Source: Deltaproteobacteria bacterium
GTDB taxonomy: Bacteria; Myxococcota_A; Polyangia; Fen-1088
NCBI GenBank assembly: GCA_033763315.1
Contig: JANRKS010000001.1
Span: 192,001 to 256,000, forward strand
Reading direction: 5' to 3'
DNA: 64,000 nucleotides
A program made the position numbers and the translations under genes. The notes under the pieces are model-generated. The model was not told the origin of the DNA. It was given only the letters and a program-made list of their open reading frames with translations, and did not search any database. How positions within the stretch are numbered: position 1 is the first letter of the stretch; every line of letters begins with the position of its first letter. Positions 19,758-34,134 of this stretch are shown in pieces.

Positions 19758-19791
19758 TTGACGCGCCTGCCAGGGTGCTTCCGTGGTACAC

Positions 19792-20535
19792 ATGCGAAGT
19801 TTTCAGGTTGGCCGCATCTTCGGTTTCCCGATCAAGGTGAACTTATCGTTCTTGATTTTGCTCGGCGCCGTGTGGCTGTGGTTTGGCGGCTTGCCAGGCG
19901 TGGCTTTGATGGCCGTGGCGTTCACCAGCGTGGTGGCGCACGAGTTGGGGCACGCCTTGGTGGCGCGGCAGCTTGGCGTTCGGACGAAGGAAATCGAACT
20001 TGGTTTTCTCGGCGGTGCGGCGAAGATCTTAGACCTGCCCCGCCGCCCTGGCGACGAGATCGCCATCGCCGCCGCTGGCCCCGCCGTATCGTTTGCTCTT
20101 GCAGGCCTAAGCTACGCCGTGGCTTCGTTGATTGATAGCTCCGCGCTCGCCTGGGTCGCGATCATCAACTTGGGCATCGCTCTCTTCAATTTGGTGCCCG
20201 CCTTGCCCATGGACGGGGGCCGCATCTTGCGCGCGCTGCTGTCGATGCGCATGGGTTATGGATCTGCCACCCGCGTGGCGGTGAAGGTAGCGCGCGGTTT
20301 GGCGTTGGTGTTGGGCGGCGTGGGCCTTGTGACCTTGCACCTGCAACTGGTGGCAGTAGCGTTCTTCGTGTGGCTCGCCAGTGGCGCCGAATTGCGCGCT
20401 GCGCGCTTTGTGAATCCGTATGCGGATCACGAAACGCCCGTGGCTGTGGAATACATTCCGCCGCAAGCGTGGCCACCCAAACCGCAGCCGCCGTTTGCGC
20501 GCGGCCCGGTGCGCGTGGTTGTGTTTCGCACTTAA
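19792..20535 (+). CDS. Site-2 protease (peptidase M50)
   Basis: HELGH, AGP, FNLVPALPMDGGR; multiple TM segments. Confidence 0.93.
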   Translation: MRSFQVGRIFGFPIKVNLSFLILLGAVWLWFGGLPGVALMAVAFTSVVAHELGHALVARQLGVRTKEIELGFLGGAAKILDLPRRPGDEIAIAAAGPAVSFALAGLSYAVASLIDSSALAWVAIINLGIALFNLVPALPMDGGRILRALLSMRMGYGSATRVAVKVARGLALVLGGVGLVTLHLQLVAVAFFVWLASGAELRAARFVNPYADHETPVAVEYIPPQAWPPKPQPPFARGPVRVVVFRT

Positions 20536-23577: not shown

Positions 23578-24063
23578 CTATCTTTCAATCTCATCTCGGC
23601 CCACAAACTCAAGCGCCATCTCCTTGCCACAGGCCACAAAGCCTGCGCGCTCATAAACGGGGCGCGCCCGCGGCTCGGCGTGTAACGAGAGGCGGCAGCA
23701 AAGGGCAGCCTGCGCGGCAGTGATGACGGCATCAAGCAAACGCGCAGCGATGCCACACCCTCGCCACGCCGGCAGCGTGTACATGTTCATGATGTAACCT
23801 TCGCGGCCGTTGAAGTTCGAATACGAGGGCGGCTTCCGCAGAACCACGAGGCCGCTTGTTGCCACGACACGGTTCTCGTGGCGTGCAAGATGAGCGACGA
23901 ATTCTCCCGTTGGGACCGAGTGGCTAAAATAGGCGCGCAGTTCGCTTTGCAATGAGGCTGGCGCAGGGGCGCCGTTGACCTCTTCGAGAAACGCAAGTCG
24001 CATCGCGACCAAAGTCTCGATGTCATCAGGCGTGGCGGGAGAGAATGAGAGTGAGCCGAACAT
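23578..24063 (-). CDS. GNAT family N-acetyltransferase
   Basis: YIMNMYTLPAWRGCGIA acetyl-CoA motif; YERAGF. Confidence 0.9.
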   Translation of the reverse strand: MFGSLSFSPATPDDIETLVAMRLAFLEEVNGAPAPASLQSELRAYFSHSVPTGEFVAHLARHENRVVATSGLVVLRKPPSYSNFNGREGYIMNMYTLPAWRGCGIAARLLDAVITAAQAALCCRLSLHAEPRARPVYERAGFVACGKEMALEFVGRDEIER

Positions 24064-24386
24064 GTTGGTGGAGAGCACTATAGGCCGTCGTCACAGCAAT
24101 CCAACATCCAGCCACCTAGATCTTCCGGCGGGACAGACCTGAACAGGGACGCTTCGCTCAGAAATTACGGGCGAACCTCCGCAGCCATGCCCCATGCACG
24201 ATCAGCTGTTCGAGGGGGAGCTTCCGCGTATTCATAAATGTGACAACGTCACTGCCGACGTTTGTGTTGGCGAGAATAGCGCCAATGGGCATTTAAAGGC
24301 AGGTTGATGGCAGCCCTCAGGCCACCCTGGCAAAAGCACCGCCAGAACAATGACGCTCGAATATCTTGCGACGGCCCCCAAAAAAA

Positions 24387-24416
24387 TGAGCCCTGGAATG
24401 GACGGCGGGGCCCTTC
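24387..24416 (+). promoter_or_regulatory. Putative ECF promoter TGAGCC-N17-GCCCTT upstream of the sigma gene
   Basis: Same motif and spacing recur at 28616; preceded by an A tract. Confidence 0.55.
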
Positions 24417-24455
24417 AACAGAGGCCTCCGTGCGTTTGCACGCTTTGGGCCTACA

Positions 24456-25103
24456 ATGAACGCTCTGGTCATGTCCAACGCTCCCCCCCGAATGGCCCTG
24501 GTCCCCCCGGCCCGGGTCGATGATCTCGATCAGGATGCGGCGTTGGCGCAGGCCGCCCTGGCGGGGTTGCCGGGCGCTCACAGGGCTTTGTGGGAGCGGT
24601 TCGTTCCCATGGTACGGCGGATGATCAGGCGCCAGCTGGGCCCCACTTCCAACAGTGACGTCGACGATGTGATTCAGGATGTCTTTGCGCTGGTGTTCCG
24701 CGATCTGAGGAACTTGCGTGAGCCCCGTGCCCTCTGCGGCTTCGTCGCAACTTTGACCGTGCACGCTGTGCGGCATGAGCTTCGCCGCCGCAAGTTGCGT
24801 CGCTTGGTGAGCCTCACATCCACGGGGCATGCGCCCGATGTTGAATCCGCAGACGCAGATCCCGTGGCCCGCTTGGCCCTTCACCGTCTTTATTCGGCGC
24901 TTGAGCGCTTCAAGGTGGTTGATCGGATGATCTTCGTCCTTCGTTATGTGGAGGGGCATGATGTGCTTGAGGTAGCCGCCGCCTTGGATCTTTCGCCGGC
25001 CACCGTGAAAAGACGAGCGGCGCACGTGTCAGAACGCCTATCCAAAGTGGTTGCCAACGATCGGTTCTTGATCGATTACCTGCAGCAGGACGGCGGGCAA
25101 TGA
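24456..25103 (+). CDS. ECF RNA polymerase sigma factor
   Basis: Region 2 DVDDVIQDVF...FV; region 4 FVLRYVEG..VLEVAAALDLSPATVKRR. Confidence 0.92.
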   Translation: MNALVMSNAPPRMALVPPARVDDLDQDAALAQAALAGLPGAHRALWERFVPMVRRMIRRQLGPTSNSDVDDVIQDVFALVFRDLRNLREPRALCGFVATLTVHAVRHELRRRKLRRLVSLTSTGHAPDVESADADPVARLALHRLYSALERFKVVDRMIFVLRYVEGHDVLEVAAALDLSPATVKRRAAHVSERLSKVVANDRFLIDYLQQDGGQ

Positions 25104-26365
25104 CACAACAAAAGGGAGCAGACGCCGAACGAGTTGCGGCCAAGGTTGCCTCCTTGATCCAAAGCCAGTATCCAAGCGAAGGTTCATCACCTGTAAAGCT
25201 TGTGTCGTTGGATGCTGTGACACACCACCGCGTGCGCGCGTGGAAATGGGCGTTGCTGTTGCCGGTGCCAGCGCTGGCGGCCGCTGCCCTGCTGTTCTAC
25301 ATCGACACGAAGCCACTGACATTCGCATTGTCTGGCGGTCACTTGTCGCCCAACCAAGAAGTTGTGGCGGATGGTGAACACGACTCCGCGTTGCGCTTCT
25401 CTGACGGCACACAGGTAGCCTTGTCTTCTCGAAGCGAGGCAAAGATTCAAGCGATCACCGCGCATGGTGCAAGTGTGAGGCTAGGTCGTGGCCGTGCGAC
25501 CGCGGCTGTGGTGCATCGGCCGCGCGCTCGTTGGTATTTTTTGGCTGGTCCATTTCAAATCGAAGTGGTGGGCACAAACTTCAGCGTCGACTGGCAACCA
25601 CAGGACGAGCGACTTGAGTTGACCATGCACAACGGCAAAGTCCGCGTCACGGGGCCGCTTGTGCCCGACGAAACCTTCTTGACGCAAGGCCAGCGTTTGC
25701 TCGTCAGCAAAGCGGACCTGCGCATTACAAACATAATGGATGATGTGGCACAACCGACCCTGGCTGAGGCGCCGGCGCCCGCAGCTGTGGCGCCTCCTTC
25801 TGGGGCCGCGCGTGTAGAGCCACCGGGTACGCAAGCAACAAACGGTGAGCGTCTTTCAAAGGCGTCCCGCGGCACACGAGGCAAGTCGCCAATCATTGTG
25901 GATGTCGCGCAATTGGTCGCGAAAGGCTCTTACGCCCAGGCGCTTGCCCACGTGCAGGCCAACGGCTTGAGCACGTTCTTGGAACGGGCGCCTTCGCACG
26001 ATCTTGCCGCGCTGGCGGAAGCCGCCCGCTATGAGCAAAATGTGGATGTTGCGCGCGCCTCGCTTCAGGCTCAACGCCAGCGCTTTGCTCGCACGCGCGC
26101 TGGATCAGAAGCGGCCTTTCACCTGGGGCGCCTGGCCGAAGACGTGGACAACATGCCTGCGCGCGCGGCAGAGTGGTTTGGCCTTTATCTGAGGGAACAA
26201 CCGACGGGCCGCTTTGCCTCTGAGGGTTTGGGGCGCCAGATGGTGGCCACGAGCCGCATGGGGGACCGCGCTGCGGCTCGAGCCTTGGCGCAAGAGTATG
26301 TGAGTCGTTTTCCGCAAGGCACTTACGCCACGGTTGCGCGCCAACTTGCGGCGCCCAAGCTCTAG
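25100..26365 (+). CDS. FecR-domain anti-sigma-like membrane protein with C-terminal TPR-like domain
   Basis: One TM segment; FSDGT.V.L, VVGTNFSV, GKVRV FecR motifs; YLREQPTGRFA and YVSRFPQG TPR-like tail; ATGA overlap with sigma. Confidence 0.88.
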   Translation: MTQQKGADAERVAAKVASLIQSQYPSEGSSPVKLVSLDAVTHHRVRAWKWALLLPVPALAAAALLFYIDTKPLTFALSGGHLSPNQEVVADGEHDSALRFSDGTQVALSSRSEAKIQAITAHGASVRLGRGRATAAVVHRPRARWYFLAGPFQIEVVGTNFSVDWQPQDERLELTMHNGKVRVTGPLVPDETFLTQGQRLLVSKADLRITNIMDDVAQPTLAEAPAPAAVAPPSGAARVEPPGTQATNGERLSKASRGTRGKSPIIVDVAQLVAKGSYAQALAHVQANGLSTFLERAPSHDLAALAEAARYEQNVDVARASLQAQRQRFARTRAGSEAAFHLGRLAEDVDNMPARAAEWFGLYLREQPTGRFASEGLGRQMVATSRMGDRAAARALAQEYVSRFPQGTYATVARQLAAPKL

Positions 26366-26368
26366 CGA

Positions 26369-27373
26369 ATGTTCAATCGGGCCGTTGCGCTGGTGCCTCT
26401 TCTGATGGTGTTGTCGTTCAACGCTCGTGCGTCTGCACGTGTTGTGATTCTGCAGCCTGTTGGGCAAAAGACGGCGGCCCTTGAAGGCGCTTTGCAGCGG
26501 ATTGCGGCTGAACTGCGGCTTGAGAGCTATGCACCAAGGGTTCAACCGTGGGTGGTAACTGCGCCTTCTGTGGAACAGTTGGAAGCGGCCGCCACGCAGC
26601 AACTTGCTTTTGGCGCTTTGGTGCTGCTGAACCTTCCCGAAGCAGGGTCAGTGCAGGTGCTTTCGTTCGACGGCACACGGAAGACGTGGGTGCTACGCAC
26701 GGTCGCGCTTGAGCAAGAAGGTGACGCGGCTTCGGTGTTGAGTATTCGCGCGGTTGAGATCATGCGCGCACATTTTCTCGAACGTAGATACAACCCTGAA
26801 GTCGTCGCTCCTGCGCGGATAGCTGTGCCGACGTCGCAAACTCTGTGGCCACATAGGTGGATGTTGGGCGTGCGCGCAGCGCGGGTGGTTGCATCGCAGG
26901 CAGATGGCGTTCGGTCTTTGCGGTTGGATGCCGCATTATCGCTGCACCAATGGGCGATCAAAGCCACGGTTGTTCCCGTAAGCACTTCAATCGAAAACCA
27001 AGCCCCTGCCGGTGCCGCCACGATGTCACAGCAATCCGCTTGGCTCAGTGGTGCCTACCTTCTGCGGATGCGAACGCGCGCGGTGATACCTTACGTTGCC
27101 GCTCACGCGGGGGCCGCGAGGCTGCAAGCGCATGGCAGCGCCACGCTGCCGTATCAGTCAACGAATGCGGCTTATGTGACGACGTTGTTTGGCGCGGGCG
27201 CGGGCAGCGTGTGGTGGGTCAACGACCAGTGGGGCCTGTCGTTAAACGCGGATGTGCTGTGGTTTGCATCCGGCGCTTCATTGCAGATCGATGGCGTTGA
27301 GCAACGCCGTTTGGGGCAGCCGCAGTTGCTTGCGTCGTTGGGCGCGATCTTCTCGTGGGGGCAAGGACGTTGA
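26369..27373 (+). CDS. Exported hypothetical protein with beta-strand-rich (possibly outer-membrane barrel) C-terminus
   Basis: Signal peptide ending ASA; alternating amphipathic strands such as PYVAAHAG, FGAGAG, WGLSLNADV. Confidence 0.7.
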   Translation: MFNRAVALVPLLMVLSFNARASARVVILQPVGQKTAALEGALQRIAAELRLESYAPRVQPWVVTAPSVEQLEAAATQQLAFGALVLLNLPEAGSVQVLSFDGTRKTWVLRTVALEQEGDAASVLSIRAVEIMRAHFLERRYNPEVVAPARIAVPTSQTLWPHRWMLGVRAARVVASQADGVRSLRLDAALSLHQWAIKATVVPVSTSIENQAPAGAATMSQQSAWLSGAYLLRMRTRAVIPYVAAHAGAARLQAHGSATLPYQSTNAAYVTTLFGAGAGSVWWVNDQWGLSLNADVLWFASGASLQIDGVEQRRLGQPQLLASLGAIFSWGQGR

Positions 27374-28599
27374 AGCGGCTAGTTTGTCTCGTTGCGTGTT
27401 TCGTCGCCTGTGACGCCACGCCCTTGAACGTCGTGCAAAAAAGCGGGTGTCCGCAAGTGGAGGGTGCGCGTCAGGCCGCAAGCACAAGTGCCTTCTTTGA
27501 TACGTTGGGCTTCAACGTGGCTGTCAGTGAGTTGGAGAACAAACGCGCTGATGGCTTAACGCCGTTGGCACACCTGCAGGCGCTTGGGGTGAAGCATCTG
27601 CGCGGCAACGCGAGTGTGCCGTTGGGCTTGAGTGGCGCCTTGGCCACCACGCTGTTGAACGCTGGCATGCGCTACACGTTTGCGCTTTCGCTCAAGACCG
27701 ATCTGGATGCCTTTTTGCCCATGACCTTGGGCGTGACGGAAGCCGTGCAGGTGGCAAGCCCGGCCAACGATTGGATCGGCCCCTATTCAGTGACTGAACT
27801 TCCGGCCGCGGCCGAACGATGGCGGGCGCAATTGAATGCATTGGACAGCGCAAAGCGGCCAGCGTTGATCGGGCCCATCATCTTTCAAACCATGGATGCA
27901 ATGGATCTGGGGAGCGTTGGCCCTTGGATCGACTTTGGCGGCTTTCGCTACACCATCGGTCTTGTGGCGCCTAGTCGTTCTTTTGGTGGCGATTGGGAAC
28001 AGATGGCTTTGAGCGTCTCAGGTGGAAAACCACTTGTTGCATCGAAAGCTTCATACGCTACCAGCCGGCCCGGTTTGCCGGAGCCACAGCTTTCAGAAGA
28101 TCTGCAGGCGAAGTACGTTGTGCGGCTATTTCTTGAGGGCTTCAACCACGCGGTGATACGAACGCACTACGATAAGCTCTATGACGACGACTGCAGTGAA
28201 AGCGGATGCACGAGCGGCCTCATACGCGTGGATGGCACATCCAAGCCTTCGTACCTTGCGTGGGCCGCGTTGGTCAAAGCTTTGGGCGCGCCTTCACAGC
28301 CGCCCACGCCGCGGGCGCTGCCGCTGACCATCGAGGCGCCCACAAACGTTCATTCTCTGCTGCTCAGCAACAGCGAAGGGGCCTTCTTTCTTCTGTTGTG
28401 GCTTGAAGTCAATGGCAAGCCTGGCGAGGATCAACAAGCCCCAGCCGTTGTGCAAGTGGGTGTGCCGCTGGCCTCAGCCCAAATGCTTGATCTCCGCCAA
28501 CCCGGGCAAGCGCCCAGCGACTTGGGGAAGATGGGGCGTTTCTCGCTGGCGGTCTCTGACGCACCTATGCTCATCACGCTCACGCCCGCGTGTTTTTGA
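27370..28599 (+). CDS. Clan GH-A glycoside hydrolase-like lipoprotein with apparently substituted catalytic residues
   Basis: FVAC lipobox; FFDTLGFN, LGVKHLR, QAKYVVRLFLE, GLIRVDGTSKP; TTGA overlap with upstream gene. Confidence 0.7.
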   Translation: MKRLVCLVACFVACDATPLNVVQKSGCPQVEGARQAASTSAFFDTLGFNVAVSELENKRADGLTPLAHLQALGVKHLRGNASVPLGLSGALATTLLNAGMRYTFALSLKTDLDAFLPMTLGVTEAVQVASPANDWIGPYSVTELPAAAERWRAQLNALDSAKRPALIGPIIFQTMDAMDLGSVGPWIDFGGFRYTIGLVAPSRSFGGDWEQMALSVSGGKPLVASKASYATSRPGLPEPQLSEDLQAKYVVRLFLEGFNHAVIRTHYDKLYDDDCSESGCTSGLIRVDGTSKPSYLAWAALVKALGAPSQPPTPRALPLTIEAPTNVHSLLLSNSEGAFFLLLWLEVNGKPGEDQQAPAVVQVGVPLASAQMLDLRQPGQAPSDLGKMGRFSLAVSDAPMLITLTPACF

Positions 28600-28615
28600 T
28601 CACCGACGAAATATT

Positions 28616-28645
28616 TGAGCCGCGTTCGCTGAGTCACAGCCCCTT
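28616..28645 (+). promoter_or_regulatory. Putative ECF promoter TGAGCC-N17-GCCCCTT upstream of DUF1592/DUF1552
   Basis: Matches the motif at 24387 in sequence and spacing. Confidence 0.55.
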
Positions 28646-28688
28646 GTTTATTAGCCAGCCGCTTTGGGTGGCCAAGGGAGTTCCTCGG

Positions 28689-30416
28689 ATGAATCGGATA
28701 AGCAGTTCACGTTCAAGCCGGTCAAACACGCCCCGTGCCAGGGCCGTTGTGGTGGCGCCCTTCCTCGTTGCTTGGTTCGTGTCAGCGCCGGGGTGTTCGG
28801 GCCATGTGGCTGAGCCCGCTGGCGGCGGCGACACGCAAGATCCTGGCGGTGCCAGCCCAGATGGTGCCGATGTCACGGGTGGCAACACCCTCAAGGCAGA
28901 AAGCGCCGGCCCCAAACCCTTACGACGCCTGACGCGCGACGAATACAACAACACTGTTCGTGACCTGTTGGGCGACAGCACGGCACCCGCTGCGGCCTTT
29001 GCCGACGACGTGCGAGGCGAGGGTGGGTTCTATTCACCCAACCGCGTGTCCGGCGTGGAAACCAGCGCTTACAGAGACGCGGCAGAAACGCTGGCCAGTG
29101 CGGCTGTGCAACGAACGCCGGCGTTGGCCAACTGTTCGGGCGCAGAGCCCATTTGTGCTGACGCCTTCATCGAAAGCTTCGGCCGCAAAGCCTTTCGCCG
29201 CCCGTTGAGCGCGGTAGAAAATCAGTCGCTTAAAGCTCTTTATACTAAGGTGCGCGCCGAACCCCTCAAGGCGCCTCACAAAGAAGCCATTCAGATCCTC
29301 ATCGCGGCCATGCTGCAAGCGCCTCAGTTTTTGTACCATTGGGAAGCGACCAGCTCTGCGCGTGAGCGTGATGGCAGTCTGGTGAAACTGGATGGCTTCG
29401 AGATCGCTTCGCGGTTGTCGTACTTCCTGTGGTCATCAATGCCCGACGATGAACTTTTGTCGGCGGCCGCCGCGGGTGAGCTTGATTCACAATCCAAGGT
29501 GGCCGAACACGCGGAGCGCTTGCTTGCTGATAAACGCGCTTCAAGCACAGTTTCGAGCTTCTTCGCACAGCTGCTCGACCTTGAGCGAGTGCCTGGCCTT
29601 GTCAAAGACCAAAGCGCCTACCCGGCGTTCAACAAAGATCTGGCCAAAGCGATGGTGGCCGAAGCAGACGCTTTCGTTAAATACGCGGTGCTCGACGACG
29701 GCAAGTATGAAACGCTGCTCACGTCACCCGTATCATTCATCAACGCCGACCTGGCGATGCTGTATGGCAAAGCGGGGGTGTCAGGCGCCGAACTTCGTAA
29801 AACCGAACTCAACCGGGATCAACGCTTTGGACTATTAACCCAAGGCGCGTTCTTGGCGGGCCAGGCGAACACATATGAAACGTCGCCGGTGCTGCGAGGT
29901 AAGTTGGTGCTCACGCGCTTGTTGTGCGAAACCGTTCCGCCGCCGCCGCCTGATGTGGACACGAGTTTGGGCACGCCCCAACCAGGCCAGCAAACACGAG
30001 AACGCTATGAGTCGCATTCAACGAATGCGTCCTGCGCCGGTTGTCACAAGACGCTTGATCCGTTTGGCTTCGCCTTCGAGAGCTATGATGGCATTGGGCG
30101 GTATCGAACCATGGACGCGGGGCGCCCCGTGCGCACAGATGGCAAGGTCAGTTTGCCCTCCGGTGACATCAGCTTCTCGAACGCCAAAGAGCTTGTGAGC
30201 CTCATTGCCAAGAGCCCCGAAGGCTTGGGCTGCATGGCGACCCAGTGGCTGCGGTTTGGTTTGGGACGGGCGGACGACGCTGCTGATGAAGGCTCACGTG
30301 AGCGCGCCTTGGCTGCGTTTAAGCAAGCGGGCGGAAATTTCCGCGAGCTGCTTTTGTCGATCGTGAAGTCCAAAACGTTCCGATATCGGGCTTTGTCCGA
30401 AGGCGAGGTGCTTTGA
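28689..30416 (+). CDS. DUF1592 family protein (DUF1587/1595/1592/1588/1585 architecture), lipoprotein with heme c motif
   Basis: LRRLTRDEYNNTVRDLLG, AFRRPL, ASRLSYFLWSSMPD, TSPVLRG, CAGCH, DPFGFAFESYDGIG. Confidence 0.92.
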   Translation: MNRISSSRSSRSNTPRARAVVVAPFLVAWFVSAPGCSGHVAEPAGGGDTQDPGGASPDGADVTGGNTLKAESAGPKPLRRLTRDEYNNTVRDLLGDSTAPAAAFADDVRGEGGFYSPNRVSGVETSAYRDAAETLASAAVQRTPALANCSGAEPICADAFIESFGRKAFRRPLSAVENQSLKALYTKVRAEPLKAPHKEAIQILIAAMLQAPQFLYHWEATSSARERDGSLVKLDGFEIASRLSYFLWSSMPDDELLSAAAAGELDSQSKVAEHAERLLADKRASSTVSSFFAQLLDLERVPGLVKDQSAYPAFNKDLAKAMVAEADAFVKYAVLDDGKYETLLTSPVSFINADLAMLYGKAGVSGAELRKTELNRDQRFGLLTQGAFLAGQANTYETSPVLRGKLVLTRLLCETVPPPPPDVDTSLGTPQPGQQTRERYESHSTNASCAGCHKTLDPFGFAFESYDGIGRYRTMDAGRPVRTDGKVSLPSGDISFSNAKELVSLIAKSPEGLGCMATQWLRFGLGRADDAADEGSRERALAAFKQAGGNFRELLLSIVKSKTFRYRALSEGEVL

Positions 30417-31924
30417 TGTTTCCATCACGTCGAGGGTTTCTAAAGGCAGCTGGCCTCAGTGGTGCGATGTTGCCGTTGCTCAACGCCGATCTCGCTCGTG
30501 CCGCGGCGCCACCCAAACGTTTGGTGGTGTTCTGTTGGAGCAACGGCATTCGTCGCAATGACTTCTGGCCGGAAGTGGGACCGACCAAAAGCGCCACGGA
30601 CTGGATATTGCCTGTGCCCGGCACAGCGCCACCGCAACAAACACCTGTGGCTTTGCCGATGCTTGAGCCATTGGTCAAAGAATTCCGCAACGACATGATC
30701 ATCGCTGGCGGCTTCGACGTAAGCGCCCTCTATGAAGCCCGCAAACCGAATTACCAGGCCACGCCTTCCCGTGGCGCCGGCCACAACACAATGTGTTGCT
30801 TGCTCACGGGTGCCTATCCAGCGCAATACCGCGATGGCTTTCAATCATCGGGCGGCCCCTCGGTGGATCAAGTGATCGGCCGCGAACTGGCCAAACGCCA
30901 CGGGTTGGCCTTCCCGTCTTTGGTGATCGGCGGCCGCGCCAACGCAGGCTTTCAAGGCACCATCTCTTACGCAGGTGTTGACGATCCGGGCATCACGCCC
31001 GAAAACGATCCCAGCAATCTATTCAAGACCCTGTTTGCGGGGCGCAATCTTCCGAAGGGCACCTTCGATCGCGTGGCTGCCACCCGGCAGAGCATCCTTG
31101 ATTACGTCGCTCCTGAACTCGTGCGGTTCGGCGGCAGATTTGGCGGCGAAGACAAGCAGAAGATCAGCGCGCATCTGCAAACCATTCGCGATCTCGAAAA
31201 CCAGCTCAAAGGTGGCGCCAACCCGGTTGAATGCACGGCGCCCACGACGCCCACGGCGGACTACAAACCCAACGACATGCTTCCTGCGTTGCTGAAGATG
31301 CAATCAGATCTTCTGGCCACAGCCTTCAAATGTGATCTGACCCGCGTCGCCACTTTCAATTTCGAGAACACGGGCGGCAACAACATTGCGTTCAGTTGGC
31401 TTGGCCAAGAGTTCGTCGGCAAGGGCGACGAATACCCCACGCGTCAGCACCACGACATCGCGCACAATTTCTTTCGCAGTGACATAGGGGCACTTCGTCA
31501 CAGCCGGGTGAACCAGTGGTTCTTCGAGCAGGTGGCGTATTTCGTGCGCCTGTTGAAGAACACACCCGAAGGTGCGGGCACCATGCTTGATAACACCGCG
31601 GTCGTGGTGTTGAACTCGATGGGCCAAAACCACGCCTCGGCAGGTTTGCCTTGTGTGATCCTGGGAAGCTGCGGCGGATACTTTAAAACGGGTGGCCGCT
31701 TGGTGCGCATGAACGAGTTCGCCACACAAAACAAGTATCCGTTTTACTGGGGCCCCGGCGAGCTGGGCATGCGCGATGGCAAACTGATGGAGTGGAACGC
31801 CTATGCTGTGGCTGGTGCGCCCATCAACCGCTTGCTGGTGTCGTTGGCCAACGCTATGGACGTTCCCACAGCCACGTTTGGTGAGCCGCAATATGGCGGC
31901 GAGATTACGGAGCTGCGCGGGTAA
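30416..31924 (+). CDS. DUF1552 family protein, Tat-exported
   Basis: SRRGFLK Tat signal; SVDQVI, H...IRDLE, AFKCDLTRVAT, HHDIAH, TMLDNT. Confidence 0.92.
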   Translation: MFPSRRGFLKAAGLSGAMLPLLNADLARAAAPPKRLVVFCWSNGIRRNDFWPEVGPTKSATDWILPVPGTAPPQQTPVALPMLEPLVKEFRNDMIIAGGFDVSALYEARKPNYQATPSRGAGHNTMCCLLTGAYPAQYRDGFQSSGGPSVDQVIGRELAKRHGLAFPSLVIGGRANAGFQGTISYAGVDDPGITPENDPSNLFKTLFAGRNLPKGTFDRVAATRQSILDYVAPELVRFGGRFGGEDKQKISAHLQTIRDLENQLKGGANPVECTAPTTPTADYKPNDMLPALLKMQSDLLATAFKCDLTRVATFNFENTGGNNIAFSWLGQEFVGKGDEYPTRQHHDIAHNFFRSDIGALRHSRVNQWFFEQVAYFVRLLKNTPEGAGTMLDNTAVVVLNSMGQNHASAGLPCVILGSCGGYFKTGGRLVRMNEFATQNKYPFYWGPGELGMRDGKLMEWNAYAVAGAPINRLLVSLANAMDVPTATFGEPQYGGEITELRG

Positions 31925-31992
31925 GCAGCCTGCGCCGGCGCGTGCGCTCGCTCGGCTTGTCTCATGAGATGTGCTTGATGGACGCGCCCGTC

Positions 31993-32240
31993 ATGCACCC
32001 CGAGAGGGTCATGTTCCGTGACTACGGCATCACCAAGGGCGAGCTGTGTGCGCACGATCAGTCCGTGGCCCCCACCCGGTGATGATCCCAAATCGTTACG
32101 TGCGGCGCCTTTGGCGGTGCGGGATCTGGCTTGACGAATTGAAGTTGCCTTCACATCGCCCTCGCTGTGGACGACGATACGGATTTTGAAACCACTGGGC
32201 TGTTCGCTCGTGGCGCGAGACGCGGTGCTGGTCAACCCGC
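31993..32240 (+). pseudogene. Remnant of LigD primase-polymerase domain
   Basis: Collinear fragments HPERVMFRDYGITKGEL..SVAP / DDPKSLRAAPLAVRDL-LDELKLPS / HIALAVDDDTDFE, broken by a stop codon, frameshifts and deletions. Confidence 0.65.
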
Positions 32241-32346
32241 CGTCCCGTGTCGCGTAAAGCGAAACGCAAGCCTTAAAGCGCGGGCGCGCCGGTCGGGTTT
32301 GCAGCGCAGGCGCCGATGAGTTTAAATTGGCGGTGGTGGAAGGGTG

Positions 32347-34134
32347 ATGGGATCAACGGATTTCAAGCTCCTGTTCGAATCCTGCCCCGGTCTTTACCTA
32401 GTTTTAGACCGGGAACTTTGCATTGTGGCCGCCAGCAACGCGTACCTGCAGGCGAGCATGACCCGGCGTGACGACATCCTTGGACGAAACATCTTCGAAG
32501 TGTTTCCGGATAACCCCGACGACCCGCAAGCCACTGGTGTTTCGAATCTACGGATGTCTCTTGAACGGGTGCTCGCCACGTCCGAACCGGACACCATGGC
32601 GGTGCAAAAGTACGACGTACGCCGGCCTGACACAGGGTTGTTTGAGGAAAGATTTTGGAGCCCGTTTAACACGCCCGTTCGCAGCGAGTCGGGGGAGCTG
32701 CTCTACATCATTCATCGTGTTGAAGATGTCACCGAGTTTATCAAGATGCGCCAAGCGGGCAGTGAACAATCCCGGATCAACGACGAGCTTCGCCAGCGCG
32801 CTGGACGCATGGAGGCCGAGATCTATCGCCGCGCGCAGGAAATTCAGGAGGCGAACCATCGCCTCTTGCAAACAACCGCCACACTTGAACGGCACGTGGC
32901 TGCGGGCGCAAGTGACTTGCAGCAATCAGCCGAGGCACTGGCGCTCGAAAGCCGTGAACGGCTCAAGACGCAAGCCGCGCTTCGGCAAAGCGAAGAGCAG
33001 CTGCGCCAGGCTCAAAAGATGGAGGCGGTCGGTCGCATGGCAGGCGGCGTGGCACATGACTTCAACAACATGTTGTCGGTGGTTCTAAGTTATGCGTCCG
33101 AGCTCGTTGAAAGCGGTACATTAAGTGAATCGAACCTGCTGGCGGCACAGCAAATCGAACGCGCGGGCGCTCGGGCCGCAGACTTGACCAAGCGACTGTT
33201 GACGTTTAGTCGCCAACAAGTCACCGATCTGCGGCCGATCGACTTGAACGAGGTTTTGGCTGGTACGTTCAAGATGTTGCAACGCGTGTGCAAGGAGAAC
33301 ATCGCCTTAAGCATGACGCAGGGGCATGAGCTTGGTCGCATCCGCGCCGATGCAGGTCAAATCGAGCAGGTGCTGATGAACTTGGTGGTCAACGCCCAAG
33401 ACGCCATGCCAGACGGAGGTCAGATCAACGTTTCAACGTTGAACGTGAATCTTGATGAGGCTTACACGCGCGAGCACCTTGGTGTGCTGCCGGGCCCTTA
33501 CGTGTTGCTTTCCGTGAGCGACACAGGTGTTGGCATGGACAAAGAAACGCAATCGCGTGTGTTCGAGCCGTTCTTTACCACCAAGCCCCGTGGCCGAGGT
33601 ACAGGCCTTGGTCTTTCCACAGTGTTTGGCATTGTGAAGCAAAGTGGCGGCAGCATTTGGCTTTACAGCGAGCCGGGCGTGGGCACGACGTTCAAACTCT
33701 ATTTTCCGCGCATCGACGCTGCACCTGTGGCTCCTGTGGTCACCGTCGCCTCAACTGCAGTGGGTGGAACAGAAACCATCTTAGTGGTTGAAGATGACAT
33801 GCAAATCCGTGAGGTCGTTTGCCGCGTCCTGCAGCGCAGTGGTTATCAAGTGATTGAAGCCAAGGGGCCGCTGGAATGTCTGGAGTTGATGACAGGCCAC
33901 ACATCTCGAATTGATTTGCTCTTAACAGACGTTGTCATGCCCCAGCTAAATGGTCCGGAGCTTGCGCGCAAGATCCAGGCGCTTCACCCCGAGATCAAGG
34001 TTCTGTTTATATCGGGATACACCGATGACGCCATCGTGCACCATGGGGTGCTTGCCCCTGGCGTGCAATTCCTGCAAAAGCCGCTTACGCCCCGGGCTTT
34101 GACCACACGCGTTCGCGAAGTGCTCGACCAATAG
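32347..34134 (+). CDS. PAS-domain hybrid sensor histidine kinase/response regulator
   Basis: PAS (GRNIFEVFPDNP); H-box AHDFNN; NLVVNAQDAM, FFTTK..GTGLGL; receiver LLTDVVMP. Confidence 0.95.
   Translation: MGSTDFKLLFESCPGLYLVLDRELCIVAASNAYLQASMTRRDDILGRNIFEVFPDNPDDPQATGVSNLRMSLERVLATSEPDTMAVQKYDVRRPDTGLFEERFWSPFNTPVRSESGELLYIIHRVEDVTEFIKMRQAGSEQSRINDELRQRAGRMEAEIYRRAQEIQEANHRLLQTTATLERHVAAGASDLQQSAEALALESRERLKTQAALRQSEEQLRQAQKMEAVGRMAGGVAHDFNNMLSVVLSYASELVESGTLSESNLLAAQQIERAGARAADLTKRLLTFSRQQVTDLRPIDLNEVLAGTFKMLQRVCKENIALSMTQGHELGRIRADAGQIEQVLMNLVVNAQDAMPDGGQINVSTLNVNLDEAYTREHLGVLPGPYVLLSVSDTGVGMDKETQSRVFEPFFTTKPRGRGTGLGLSTVFGIVKQSGGSIWLYSEPGVGTTFKLYFPRIDAAPVAPVVTVASTAVGGTETILVVEDDMQIREVVCRVLQRSGYQVIEAKGPLECLELMTGHTSRIDLLLTDVVMPQLNGPELARKIQALHPEIKVLFISGYTDDAIVHHGVLAPGVQFLQKPLTPRALTTRVREVLDQ

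Follow-up and report, generated by a model that had tools for sequence, protein, structure and literature searches.

A candidate TonB-independent signaling module of Polyangia combining an ECF sigma factor, a FecR-TPR anti-sigma factor, a predicted outer-membrane barrel protein and a variable lipoprotein

The DNA analyzed here, a window of 64,000 nucleotides (G000:C1:192001-256000) from the 7.6-Mb genome G000 of an uncultured soil or sediment myxobacterium of the class Polyangia, is filled at positions 24456-31924 by six genes on the plus strand. The first four encode a sigma factor of the extracytoplasmic function (ECF) type, a FecR-domain anti-sigma factor with a C-terminal TPR domain, a predicted outer-membrane barrel protein and a lipoprotein resembling the glycosidase PslG. 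They are one copy of a module that is common in Polyangia and whose constant core is the triad of sigma factor, FecR-TPR protein and barrel protein. On balance it is probable that the four genes specify a four-part trans-envelope signaling relay that needs no TonB-dependent transporter. More tentative is the wider proposal that Polyangia possess a modular, TonB-independent way of sensing, in which a constant relay is equipped with an exchangeable lipoprotein cartridge (dead glycosidase, lectin, propeller or live enzyme), with up to approximately eleven units per genome, and that several units in G000 are wired to pairs of DUF1592 and DUF1552 genes, such as genes 5 and 6 of the window.

All six open reading frames (ORFs) were confirmed by the ORF listing and by scans with Pfam and NCBIfam models, in agreement with an earlier note on this DNA which had described six co-oriented genes. 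The note had let the cassette begin at 24387. No in-frame start exists at this position; going by its reading frame, the sigma gene can begin at ATG 24456 at the earliest. Gene 1 (24456..25103, +) encodes an ECF sigma factor of 215 amino acids that is matched by Sigma70_r2 (27.7 bits), Sigma70_r4_2 (36.4 bits), Sigma70_ECF and TIGR02937 (53.9 bits, cut-off 42.9). Gene 2 (25100..26365, +) encodes a single-pass FecR-domain anti-sigma factor of 421 amino acids. Its FecR domain (PF04773) was found at residues 97-182 with 32.6 bits (cut-off 24), and its C-terminus gave a weak YbgF/TPR-like match (TIGR02795, E 6e-4) that lies below the cut-off of this model. Paralogues of gene 2 in G000 reach TPR_16 and YfiO with E values of 1e-5 to 1e-7, some of them under the Pfam cut-offs. 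By reading of its translation, the protein appears to be composed of a short cytoplasmic N-terminus, a hydrophobic segment at approximately residues 48-68, the FecR domain, a Pro/Ala-rich linker and a TPR domain at approximately residues 268-421. The stop of gene 1 overlaps the start of gene 2 (caATGAca at 25100), so that an ECF sigma gene directly adjoins the gene of a single-pass FecR-domain anti-sigma factor, as in FecI/FecR systems. Genes 2 and 3 are separated by three nucleotides (TAG-cga-ATG at 26363-26371) and genes 3 and 4 share a TTGA overlap at 27370. The tight coupling of genes 1-4 that had been noted earlier can thus be read directly from the junctions.

ECF sigma/FecR signaling is understood mainly through TonB-dependent transducers. 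Neither the six cassette genes nor the flanking genes gave a match in a scan with PF00593 and PF07660. Genome-wide, G000 has 10 matches to PF00593 (TonB-dependent barrel), the nearest of which on contig C1 is approximately 190 kb off, and one STN match on another contig; none of these matches lies close to any of the eight modules of G000. The distance of the nearest PF00593 match supports the earlier reading of genes 1-4 as a system free of a TonB-dependent transducer, and the recurrence of the unit in other Polyangia shows it to be conserved.

This recurrence was determined in several sets of genomes. A gene 3 profile found matches in 79 of the order's 89 genomes, where a single genome can carry as many as 11 copies (five in G000), and in 100 of the 251 genomes sampled across the class; a single-protein query without a profile found gene 3 in 15 of 36 genomes of the family. 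Twenty loci of the same family (L025-L044) were fetched on gene 3. All of those reaching upstream contain the FecR gene and nearly all the sigma gene, L030 ending at the match. A second set of 20 loci represents other families within the class; here the order sigma-FecR-gene 3 is present in all 18 that have upstream sequence. A FecR-TPR pattern search of the GTDB species genomes yielded 73 loci, with titles naming Polyangia, Polyangiaceae, Myxococcales, Nannocystales and, in one case, a Sorangium sp. Two of them were excluded for want of a confirmed FecR domain. A sigma gene lies upstream of the FecR-TPR gene in 70 of the remaining 71 loci, the sole exception being cut by a contig end, and gene 3 follows directly in 64 of the 67 loci with at least 1 kb of downstream sequence. 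It is this synteny (64/67 and 18/18) that identifies the triad as the constant core. At one locus, L062:1501-4017 (-) (G098:C25), no stop separates the FecR-TPR gene from the barrel gene, and both lie in a single open frame of 839 codons that still contains the signal peptide of the barrel protein. The frame is either a natural fusion, reminiscent of the Dma proteins discussed below, or an assembly or sequencing error.

Gene 3 (26369..27373, +) encodes a protein of 334 amino acids without a Pfam or NCBIfam family. An AlphaFold2 model was built from an alignment of 45 homologues (A4) and reached a mean predicted local distance difference test (pLDDT) value of 88.4 and a predicted template modeling score (pTM) of 0.55, the latter a low value that fits two domains joined by a flexible linker. 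In the model, a signal peptide is followed by an alpha/beta domain (approximately residues 24-141), a disordered linker (146-158) and a beta-barrel (approximately 161-331). The barrel resembles solved eight-strand outer-membrane barrels with Z scores in the range 17-18.7 (OmpW 18.3, with 168 residues aligned at a root-mean-square deviation (rmsd) of 3.3; NspA 17.5; OprF-N 17.0; OmpA 16.9) and with Foldseek E values of 2e-8 to 6e-6. The protein that the earlier note had called beta-rich is thus predicted to be an outer-membrane protein with an OmpA/OmpW-like eight-strand barrel. For residues 21-140 the best match was the N-domain of TolB (7mx5_B, Z 10.4, 108 residues aligned, rmsd 2.9), followed by 1c5k (Z 9.1); since unrelated alpha/beta folds reach Z 9-10 and the match is not clear of them, this domain is called only TolB-N-like. 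At the C-terminus, most homologues of gene 3 have ..AWL or a final W or F, resembling the beta-signal of outer-membrane proteins; the window copy ends in ..FSWGQGR.

A complex of the two proteins was predicted from residues 70-421 of the FecR protein (alignment A5) and residues 22-165 of the gene 3 protein (A4), each with its own unpaired alignment. The scores were 0.87, 0.87 and 0.88, whereas the best of three controls reached 0.02. Of 157 solved complexes, 116 attain the mark applied to this score, as do 2 of 215 mismatched pairs, counts that are only rough for predictions with own alignments. The runs had at least 54% of their contacts in common, and the partner pLDDT was at least 69. In the predicted interface, the TPR domain (residues 274-416) faces helices 36-52 and 110-142 of the gene 3 protein. 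On the gene 3 side, the charged residues that are best conserved in the family fall into the interface, namely E48 (100%), E130 (93%), E138 (91%), R110 and R44 (both 89%), and the interface is more conserved than the remaining domain (Mann-Whitney p = 0.014). The FecR protein contributes R310, R344, R379, E307 and E375. No solved complex of such a type is known to us, and it therefore seems unlikely that the prediction passed by memorization. The multimer check that the earlier note had proposed for the FecR-TPR protein and the product of the gene at 26369 turned out positive, both in the score against the control and in the presence of a barrel fold; in the prediction, the FecR protein docks with its TPR end on the periplasmic domain of the gene 3 protein.

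Gene 4 (27370..28599, +) encodes a PslG/GH39-like lipoprotein of 409 amino acids when read from TTG 27370; an alternative start is GTG 27355. A lipobox, FVAC (..CFVAC-D), can be read near its beginning. No Pfam or NCBIfam family matches, and the assignment is based on a model (pLDDT 90.5) that comprises a (beta/alpha)8 TIM barrel and a C-terminal beta-sandwich. The top Foldseek matches were PslG structures (4zn2, 5bx9 and 9g17, E 1e-16; for 4zn2 E 1.4e-16 and a TM-score of 0.67), followed by enzymes of the glycoside hydrolase (GH) families GH30, GH39 and GH79, and PslG was also the best sequence-profile match of the gene 4 family (E 1.2e-11). The wider family comprises 3241 representatives at E <= 1e-3 in an exhaustive profile search. 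Many of 25 sampled members join CBM6/35, PA14, F5/8 type C, Laminin_G_3/LamG, Big or fn3 domains to the Pfam-less domain of the gene 4 type. In an alignment of 61 sequences, the wider family keeps a GPNE motif after strand 4 and an ATETGY motif after strand 7, the latter aligning to STEWGW of PslG. The glutamates of these NE and TE motifs are those which we take to be the catalytic pair (acid/base and nucleophile) of PslG and other GH-A enzymes. In gene 4 the corresponding positions read SPAND and ASKASY, and in its two paralogues PDDF/ATQVGY and NNP/APQTGY. Both glutamates are hence gone in all three proteins, as they are in about 18 of the nearest relatives. The label of a pseudo-glycosidase lipoprotein given in the earlier note is justified by the fold, the loss of both glutamates and the lipobox. 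Because gene 4 has a glycosidase fold without the two catalytic glutamates, the protein most likely binds a polysaccharide without cutting it.

The position occupied by gene 4 is variable in relatives, as had been suspected. At the same-family loci it is taken by Laminin_G_3 proteins in seven cases, by GH5 proteins in two and by a GH29 protein with F5/8C in one; at the loci of other families FG-GAP/RGL11-like propellers occur in five cases. A pectate lyase (one locus), VWA proteins and many proteins without a Pfam family complete the picture. Read by eye, nearly all position-4 proteins start with a lipobox or lipoprotein signal. The stronger statement that position 4 always holds a glycan protein was rejected, as many of these lipoproteins have no Pfam match. 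A PslG-like domain at position 4 was found outside G000 in none of the 20 family loci, the 20 other-family loci and the 71 Polyangia loci, and an alignment scan of genome contigs found no relative of gene 4. A word-based protein search gave just two relatives each for gene 3 and gene 4. On one metagenome contig of 1.8 kb, gene 3 (58% identity) is directly followed by gene 4 (77%), the contig ending before any DUF1592 gene. Moreover, database searches placed the nearest relatives of gene 3 (58%) and of gene 4 (71%) alike on a contig of 19,629 nucleotides, where they probably sit together in an orthologous cassette.

Downstream of the module lie two genes for exported proteins. Gene 5 (28689..30416, +) encodes a DUF1592-type protein with five Pfam domains in the order PSD3-PSD5-PSD4(DUF1592)-PSCyt3-PSD2 (E 5e-40 to 6e-14, all above the cut-offs). 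One CxxCH motif (CAGCH) and a lipobox-like APGC were read in its translation. The ORF opens at 28590, but the likely start is ATG 28689, which is preceded by GGGAG and leaves a gap of 89 nucleotides behind gene 4. Gene 6 (30413..31924, +) encodes a DUF1552 (HXXSHH) protein (PF07586, 166 bits) exported by twin-arginine translocation (Tat; TIGR01409, 17.7 against a cut-off of 16.7). It overlaps gene 5 by TTGATG at 30413, its start being TTG 30413 or ATG 30416. Motif, domains and junction agree with the description in the earlier note of a CxxCH-containing DUF1592 gene coupled to a Tat-dependent DUF1552 gene. A sequence search of solved structures revealed no relative of DUF1552 or DUF1592, and an Atlas search gave DUF1552 clusters only.

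Such pairs are extremely expanded in G000, where 120 DUF1592-type and 118 DUF1552-type ORFs form 102 co-directional adjacent pairs, about one per 64-75 kb. Five of the eight strong FecR-TPR modules are followed on the same strand by a pair starting at most 8 kb downstream, compared to 5.2% expected for random points; the binomial value of 2e-5 is overstated since the modules are related. When all 13 FecR matches of G000 at E <= 1e-5 are considered, six have a co-directional pair downstream. At four loci the gap between module and pair is smaller than 100 nucleotides. Three cassettes, C1 (the window), C31 and C5, have the order sigma, FecR, gene 3, dead GH, DUF1592, DUF1552. At C7b, sigma and FecR are followed by a 225-amino-acid lipoprotein and the pair, and at C6 by gene 3, a 624-amino-acid protein and a pair 2.7 kb further on. 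The gene 3 of C5 is divergent. It was found at L083:8577-9300 (+), i.e. approximately 268576-269300, in an apparent gap of 545 nucleotides and falls below the E 1e-3 level of the gene 3 profile; with it, C5 becomes the third complete six-gene cassette, whose GH-like protein is also without both glutamates. The best paralogues of genes 5 and 6 are those of C31 (485 bits with 397 bits for the next, and 542 bits with 188 bits for the next of the 118, respectively). No close paralogue of the window pair is present at C5, C6 or C7b, and the linkage therefore reflects more than one duplication. Outside the set of strong modules, a further ECF sigma gene with a weaker FecR-like gene (E 1e-9 to that of the window) lies at G000:C1:178807-184211 (+), approximately 8 kb before the window start, with a co-directional DUF pair 2 kb downstream. 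Modules C7a, C8 and C2 have no pair. Bac_transf/CoA_binding_3 proteins are of the priming glycosyltransferase type of polysaccharide synthesis, and at C8 (L082:10484-12106 (+)) the genes for sigma factor, FecR protein, barrel protein and a 433-amino-acid lipoprotein are followed by such a sugar transferase.

The proposed relay is founded on computed features, namely gene order and coupling, the folds, the loss of catalytic residues, the conservation of the triad, the variability of the fourth position and the predicted interface. From these we infer a membrane topology, glycan binding, a direction of signaling, a proteolytic step and sigma control of the DUF pair. The FecR-domain protein would span the inner membrane, retaining the ECF sigma factor on the cytoplasmic side. 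In the periplasm, its TPR domain would clasp the TolB-N-like domain of the gene 3 protein, so that the two proteins would bridge the periplasm, and the lipoprotein at position 4 would set the specificity of the unit. A ligand bound at the outer membrane may alter the contact between barrel protein and TPR domain, whereupon the anti-sigma factor could be inactivated by analogy with the regulated proteolysis of FecR-type proteins. The freed sigma factor would then transcribe its own operon, which in G000 would run into the genes for the DUF1592 protein with its heme motif and the Tat-dependent DUF1552 protein.

Several observations weigh against this relay or parts of it. The cytoplasmic N-terminus of gene 2, by which the sigma factor would be bound, is short (approximately 47 amino acids ahead of the hydrophobic segment), and the TolB-N match of gene 3 suffers from the scores of unrelated folds mentioned above. 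The FecR side of the predicted interface is no more conserved than the remaining TPR domain (p = 0.41), and the complex score is a model confidence and not a measurement, obtained moreover with own unpaired alignments. In addition, several of the position-4 genes found in relatives seem to encode intact enzymes (GH5, GH29, pectate lyase), which fits an output as well as a sensor. This leads to a different interpretation of the same triad, according to which it senses the state of the outer membrane (barrel assembly, intermembrane distance or vesiculation), comparable to Dma or RseA, and the position-4 lipoprotein and the DUF pair are regulated products. The constancy of the triad at changing position 4, the apparently intact enzymes and the single open frame of FecR and barrel genes in L062 are in line with such a sensor, and according to the accessible part of Pardue et al. 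(PMC10927553), Dma1 couples an anti-sigma domain to an eight-strand outer-membrane barrel and controls vesiculation. On the other hand, an enzymatic output would hardly account for a dead glycosidase fold retained by three paralogous cassettes and an orthologous metagenome contig, position 4 nearly always encodes a lipoprotein in tight coupling with the barrel gene, and in ECF46, as far as described in the available text of PMC7826278, a LamG domain is fused straight to FecR. We consider an envelope-state sensor of this kind rather unlikely and infer from the Laminin_G_3 fusion of ECF46, the kept dead enzyme and the constant lipoprotein nature that the position-4 protein is more likely a sensor than an output. 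Even less probable, and in our opinion improbable altogether, is that gene 4 is still an enzyme which uses other catalytic residues or a non-glycan substrate, the cassette being an ECF-regulated degradative operon. The protein does retain many family-wide residues, e.g. the invariant R264 as well as Y249, D272, K292 and P293, and its fold was modeled with high confidence. However, both glutamate positions are non-acidic and differ between the paralogues (AND/SKA, DDF/TQV and NNP/PQT), a variation that a relocated catalytic centre would not show.

With regard to the last step of the relay, it is quite possible, if somewhat doubtful, that the DUF pair is an incidental neighbor, transcribed on its own, and that its link to the module reflects the abundance of pairs in G000 and block duplication. 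The sheer number of ORFs of the two families speaks in favor of this, as does the fact that the cassettes C1 and C31 represent two copies of a single block. Among the 71 Polyangia loci, none has a co-directional downstream pair and three have a pair on the opposite strand; likewise, no pair accompanies the 12 further modules of four relatives, two belonging to the same genus and two to the same family. Seven of the 20 family loci have a pair within approximately 8 kb, which is not rare given about one pair per 64 kb, but positions and orientations are mixed and the same order exists only in L044; at the loci of other families, one of 20 has a pair nearby, which is divergent. Viewed from the pairs, only 8 of the 102 in G000 have an ECF sigma gene of the cassette type at most 8 kb upstream. 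Inspection by eye, with no motif program, of the 220 nucleotides upstream of seven sigma genes of G000 disclosed no shared -35/-10 pattern. A consensus scan of 23900-32500 gave one sigma-70-like site (1.4 expected) and none above chance and is thus uninformative, and a search of sequencing runs for the region returned three DNA runs (shares 0.08-0.10) and no RNA run. Furthermore, the 89-nucleotide gap contains a weak stem-loop with a T-run at the end of gene 4. By contrast, terminator-like sites in 23900-32500 are below chance (8 found, 11.7 expected), the frequency of 5/8 modules is far from the expected 5.2%, the gaps at four loci are short, and the lack of close paralogy between the window pair and the pairs at C5, C6 and C7b means that at least four associations arose or were kept separately. 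The idea that the DUF pair belongs to the module family was rejected in view of the 0/71 Polyangia loci and the 0/12 modules of relatives. Thus, of the control over the DUF pair suggested in the earlier note, the co-directional linkage in G000 holds, whereas the synteny of cassette and pair, for which it had proposed a survey across Myxococcota, is no property of the module family; the link between module and pair is real in G000 yet specific to its lineage.

The relay as preferred here shares features with several known systems. The closest one is ECF267, for which Casas-Pastor et al. (2021, NAR, PMC7826278) described in the Polyangiaceae genera Sorangium and Chondromyces an ECF sigma factor and, at position +1, an anti-sigma factor of FecR-like type fused to TPR, without a FecA-like or other TonB-dependent receptor. 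The cassette has the same FecR-TPR anti-sigma factor at +1 and likewise no TonB-dependent receptor, and the locus L124 of a Sorangium sp. metagenome-assembled genome holds the same triad. The likeness is one of architecture and not of a group hidden Markov model, since the cassette sigma factor was scanned with general sigma-70/ECF models only. The accessible part of that paper names no conserved partner beyond the anti-sigma factor and suggests control by a nearby protein kinase, with one to three kinases in the context. Compared with this account, the cassette is without an adjoining protein kinase among its six genes and ten flanking ORFs, a PAS histidine-kinase/receiver hybrid lying downstream; the barrel protein, the lipoprotein slot and DUF1592/DUF1552 are not mentioned in the text available. 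As far as this text goes, the receptor-less sigma/FecR-TPR core is therefore already catalogued as ECF267-type and is not new; the outer-membrane partner and the cartridge logic are not catalogued there. In a literature search, with most subscription journals outside its scope, neither the barrel partner nor the lipoprotein slot was the subject of any paper found.

With FecI/FecR/FecA the cassette has in common the ECF sigma factor, the single-pass FecR anti-sigma factor and an outer-membrane barrel whose periplasmic N-domain is predicted to contact the C-terminal end of the anti-sigma factor. Unlike FecA, the outer-membrane partner is a small eight-strand barrel and not a 22-strand TonB-dependent transporter, and its periplasmic domain is TolB-N-like and not STN. 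The anti-sigma factor, unlike FecR, ends in TPR repeats, and neither a transport function nor TonB dependence is implied. In the Dma proteins, which are limited to Bacteroidota according to the available portion of Pardue et al. (2024, PMC10927553), an anti-sigma domain and an eight-strand outer-membrane barrel are united in one chain by a disordered tether and act with an ECF21 sigma factor. The cassette is predicted to join an anti-sigma function to a barrel of the same size across the periplasm, but compared to this description it employs two separate genes (stop, gap of three nucleotides), a barrel protein with its own signal peptide and a predicted non-covalent contact, FecR and TPR domains, and a lipoprotein as a fourth component. 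ECF46 has an anti-sigma factor of FecR-like type fused to Laminin_G_3, for which the accessible supplementary text of PMC7826278 proposes carbohydrate sensing in the periplasm. Here too, a FecR-type anti-sigma factor is combined with a carbohydrate-binding module rather than with a dock for a transporter, although in the cassette family, other than in that text, the lectin- or enzyme-like domains form lipoproteins of their own, with a barrel protein in between. PslG, a GH39 protein of Pseudomonas aeruginosa, shares the TIM barrel and beta-sandwich of gene 4. By contrast, gene 4 is only approximately 15% identical, has lost both catalytic glutamate positions and is a lipoprotein encoded inside a sigma/anti-sigma operon. 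As to genes 5 and 6, adjacent pairs of PSCyt3/PSD (DUF1592 group) and DUF1552 genes with the same domain set and two-gene arrangement were reported for Planctomycetota and Verrucomicrobiota by He et al. (2017, PMC5615132), whose accessible text states that nothing is known of their function. Unlike the pairs in that account, those in the window and at four to five other loci of G000 are located directly downstream of an ECF sigma/FecR-TPR module.

If the relay holds true, a small barrel together with a swappable lipoprotein would represent a second general design by which signals from the surface are relayed to transcription, beside the single-chain Dma of Bacteroidota. The predicted interface names few conserved charged residues and makes the relay testable by mutation. 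Polyangia (Sorangium, Chondromyces and many uncultured lineages of soil and sediment) degrade polysaccharides and prey on microbes, and up to eleven units per genome could describe much of their environmental sensing. For the DUF pair, a widespread combination of a heme protein and a phosphatase-fold protein, induction triggered by a glycan would be the first regulatory clue. With a few of them lying downstream of a defined sigma factor and a probable glycan cue, pairs of no known function, about a hundred of which are present in G000, would become open to experiment.

The cassette is flanked by unrelated genes. Those upstream belong to the GNAT, SDR and PLD families and lie on the minus strand; downstream, the PAS histidine-kinase/receiver hybrid and a DbpA helicase follow. 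Past three unrelated minus-strand genes, approximately 4 kb upstream of the cassette, a Peptidase_M50 protein of the site-2-protease family (250 amino acids) is encoded at window positions 19783-20535 (+); proteases of the Peptidase_M50 family release ECF sigma factors in other systems. An antisense ORF of 258 codons at window positions 24249-25025 (-), which overlaps the sigma gene and the region upstream of it, is taken as spurious, because its high third-position G+C content only mirrors the coding strand.

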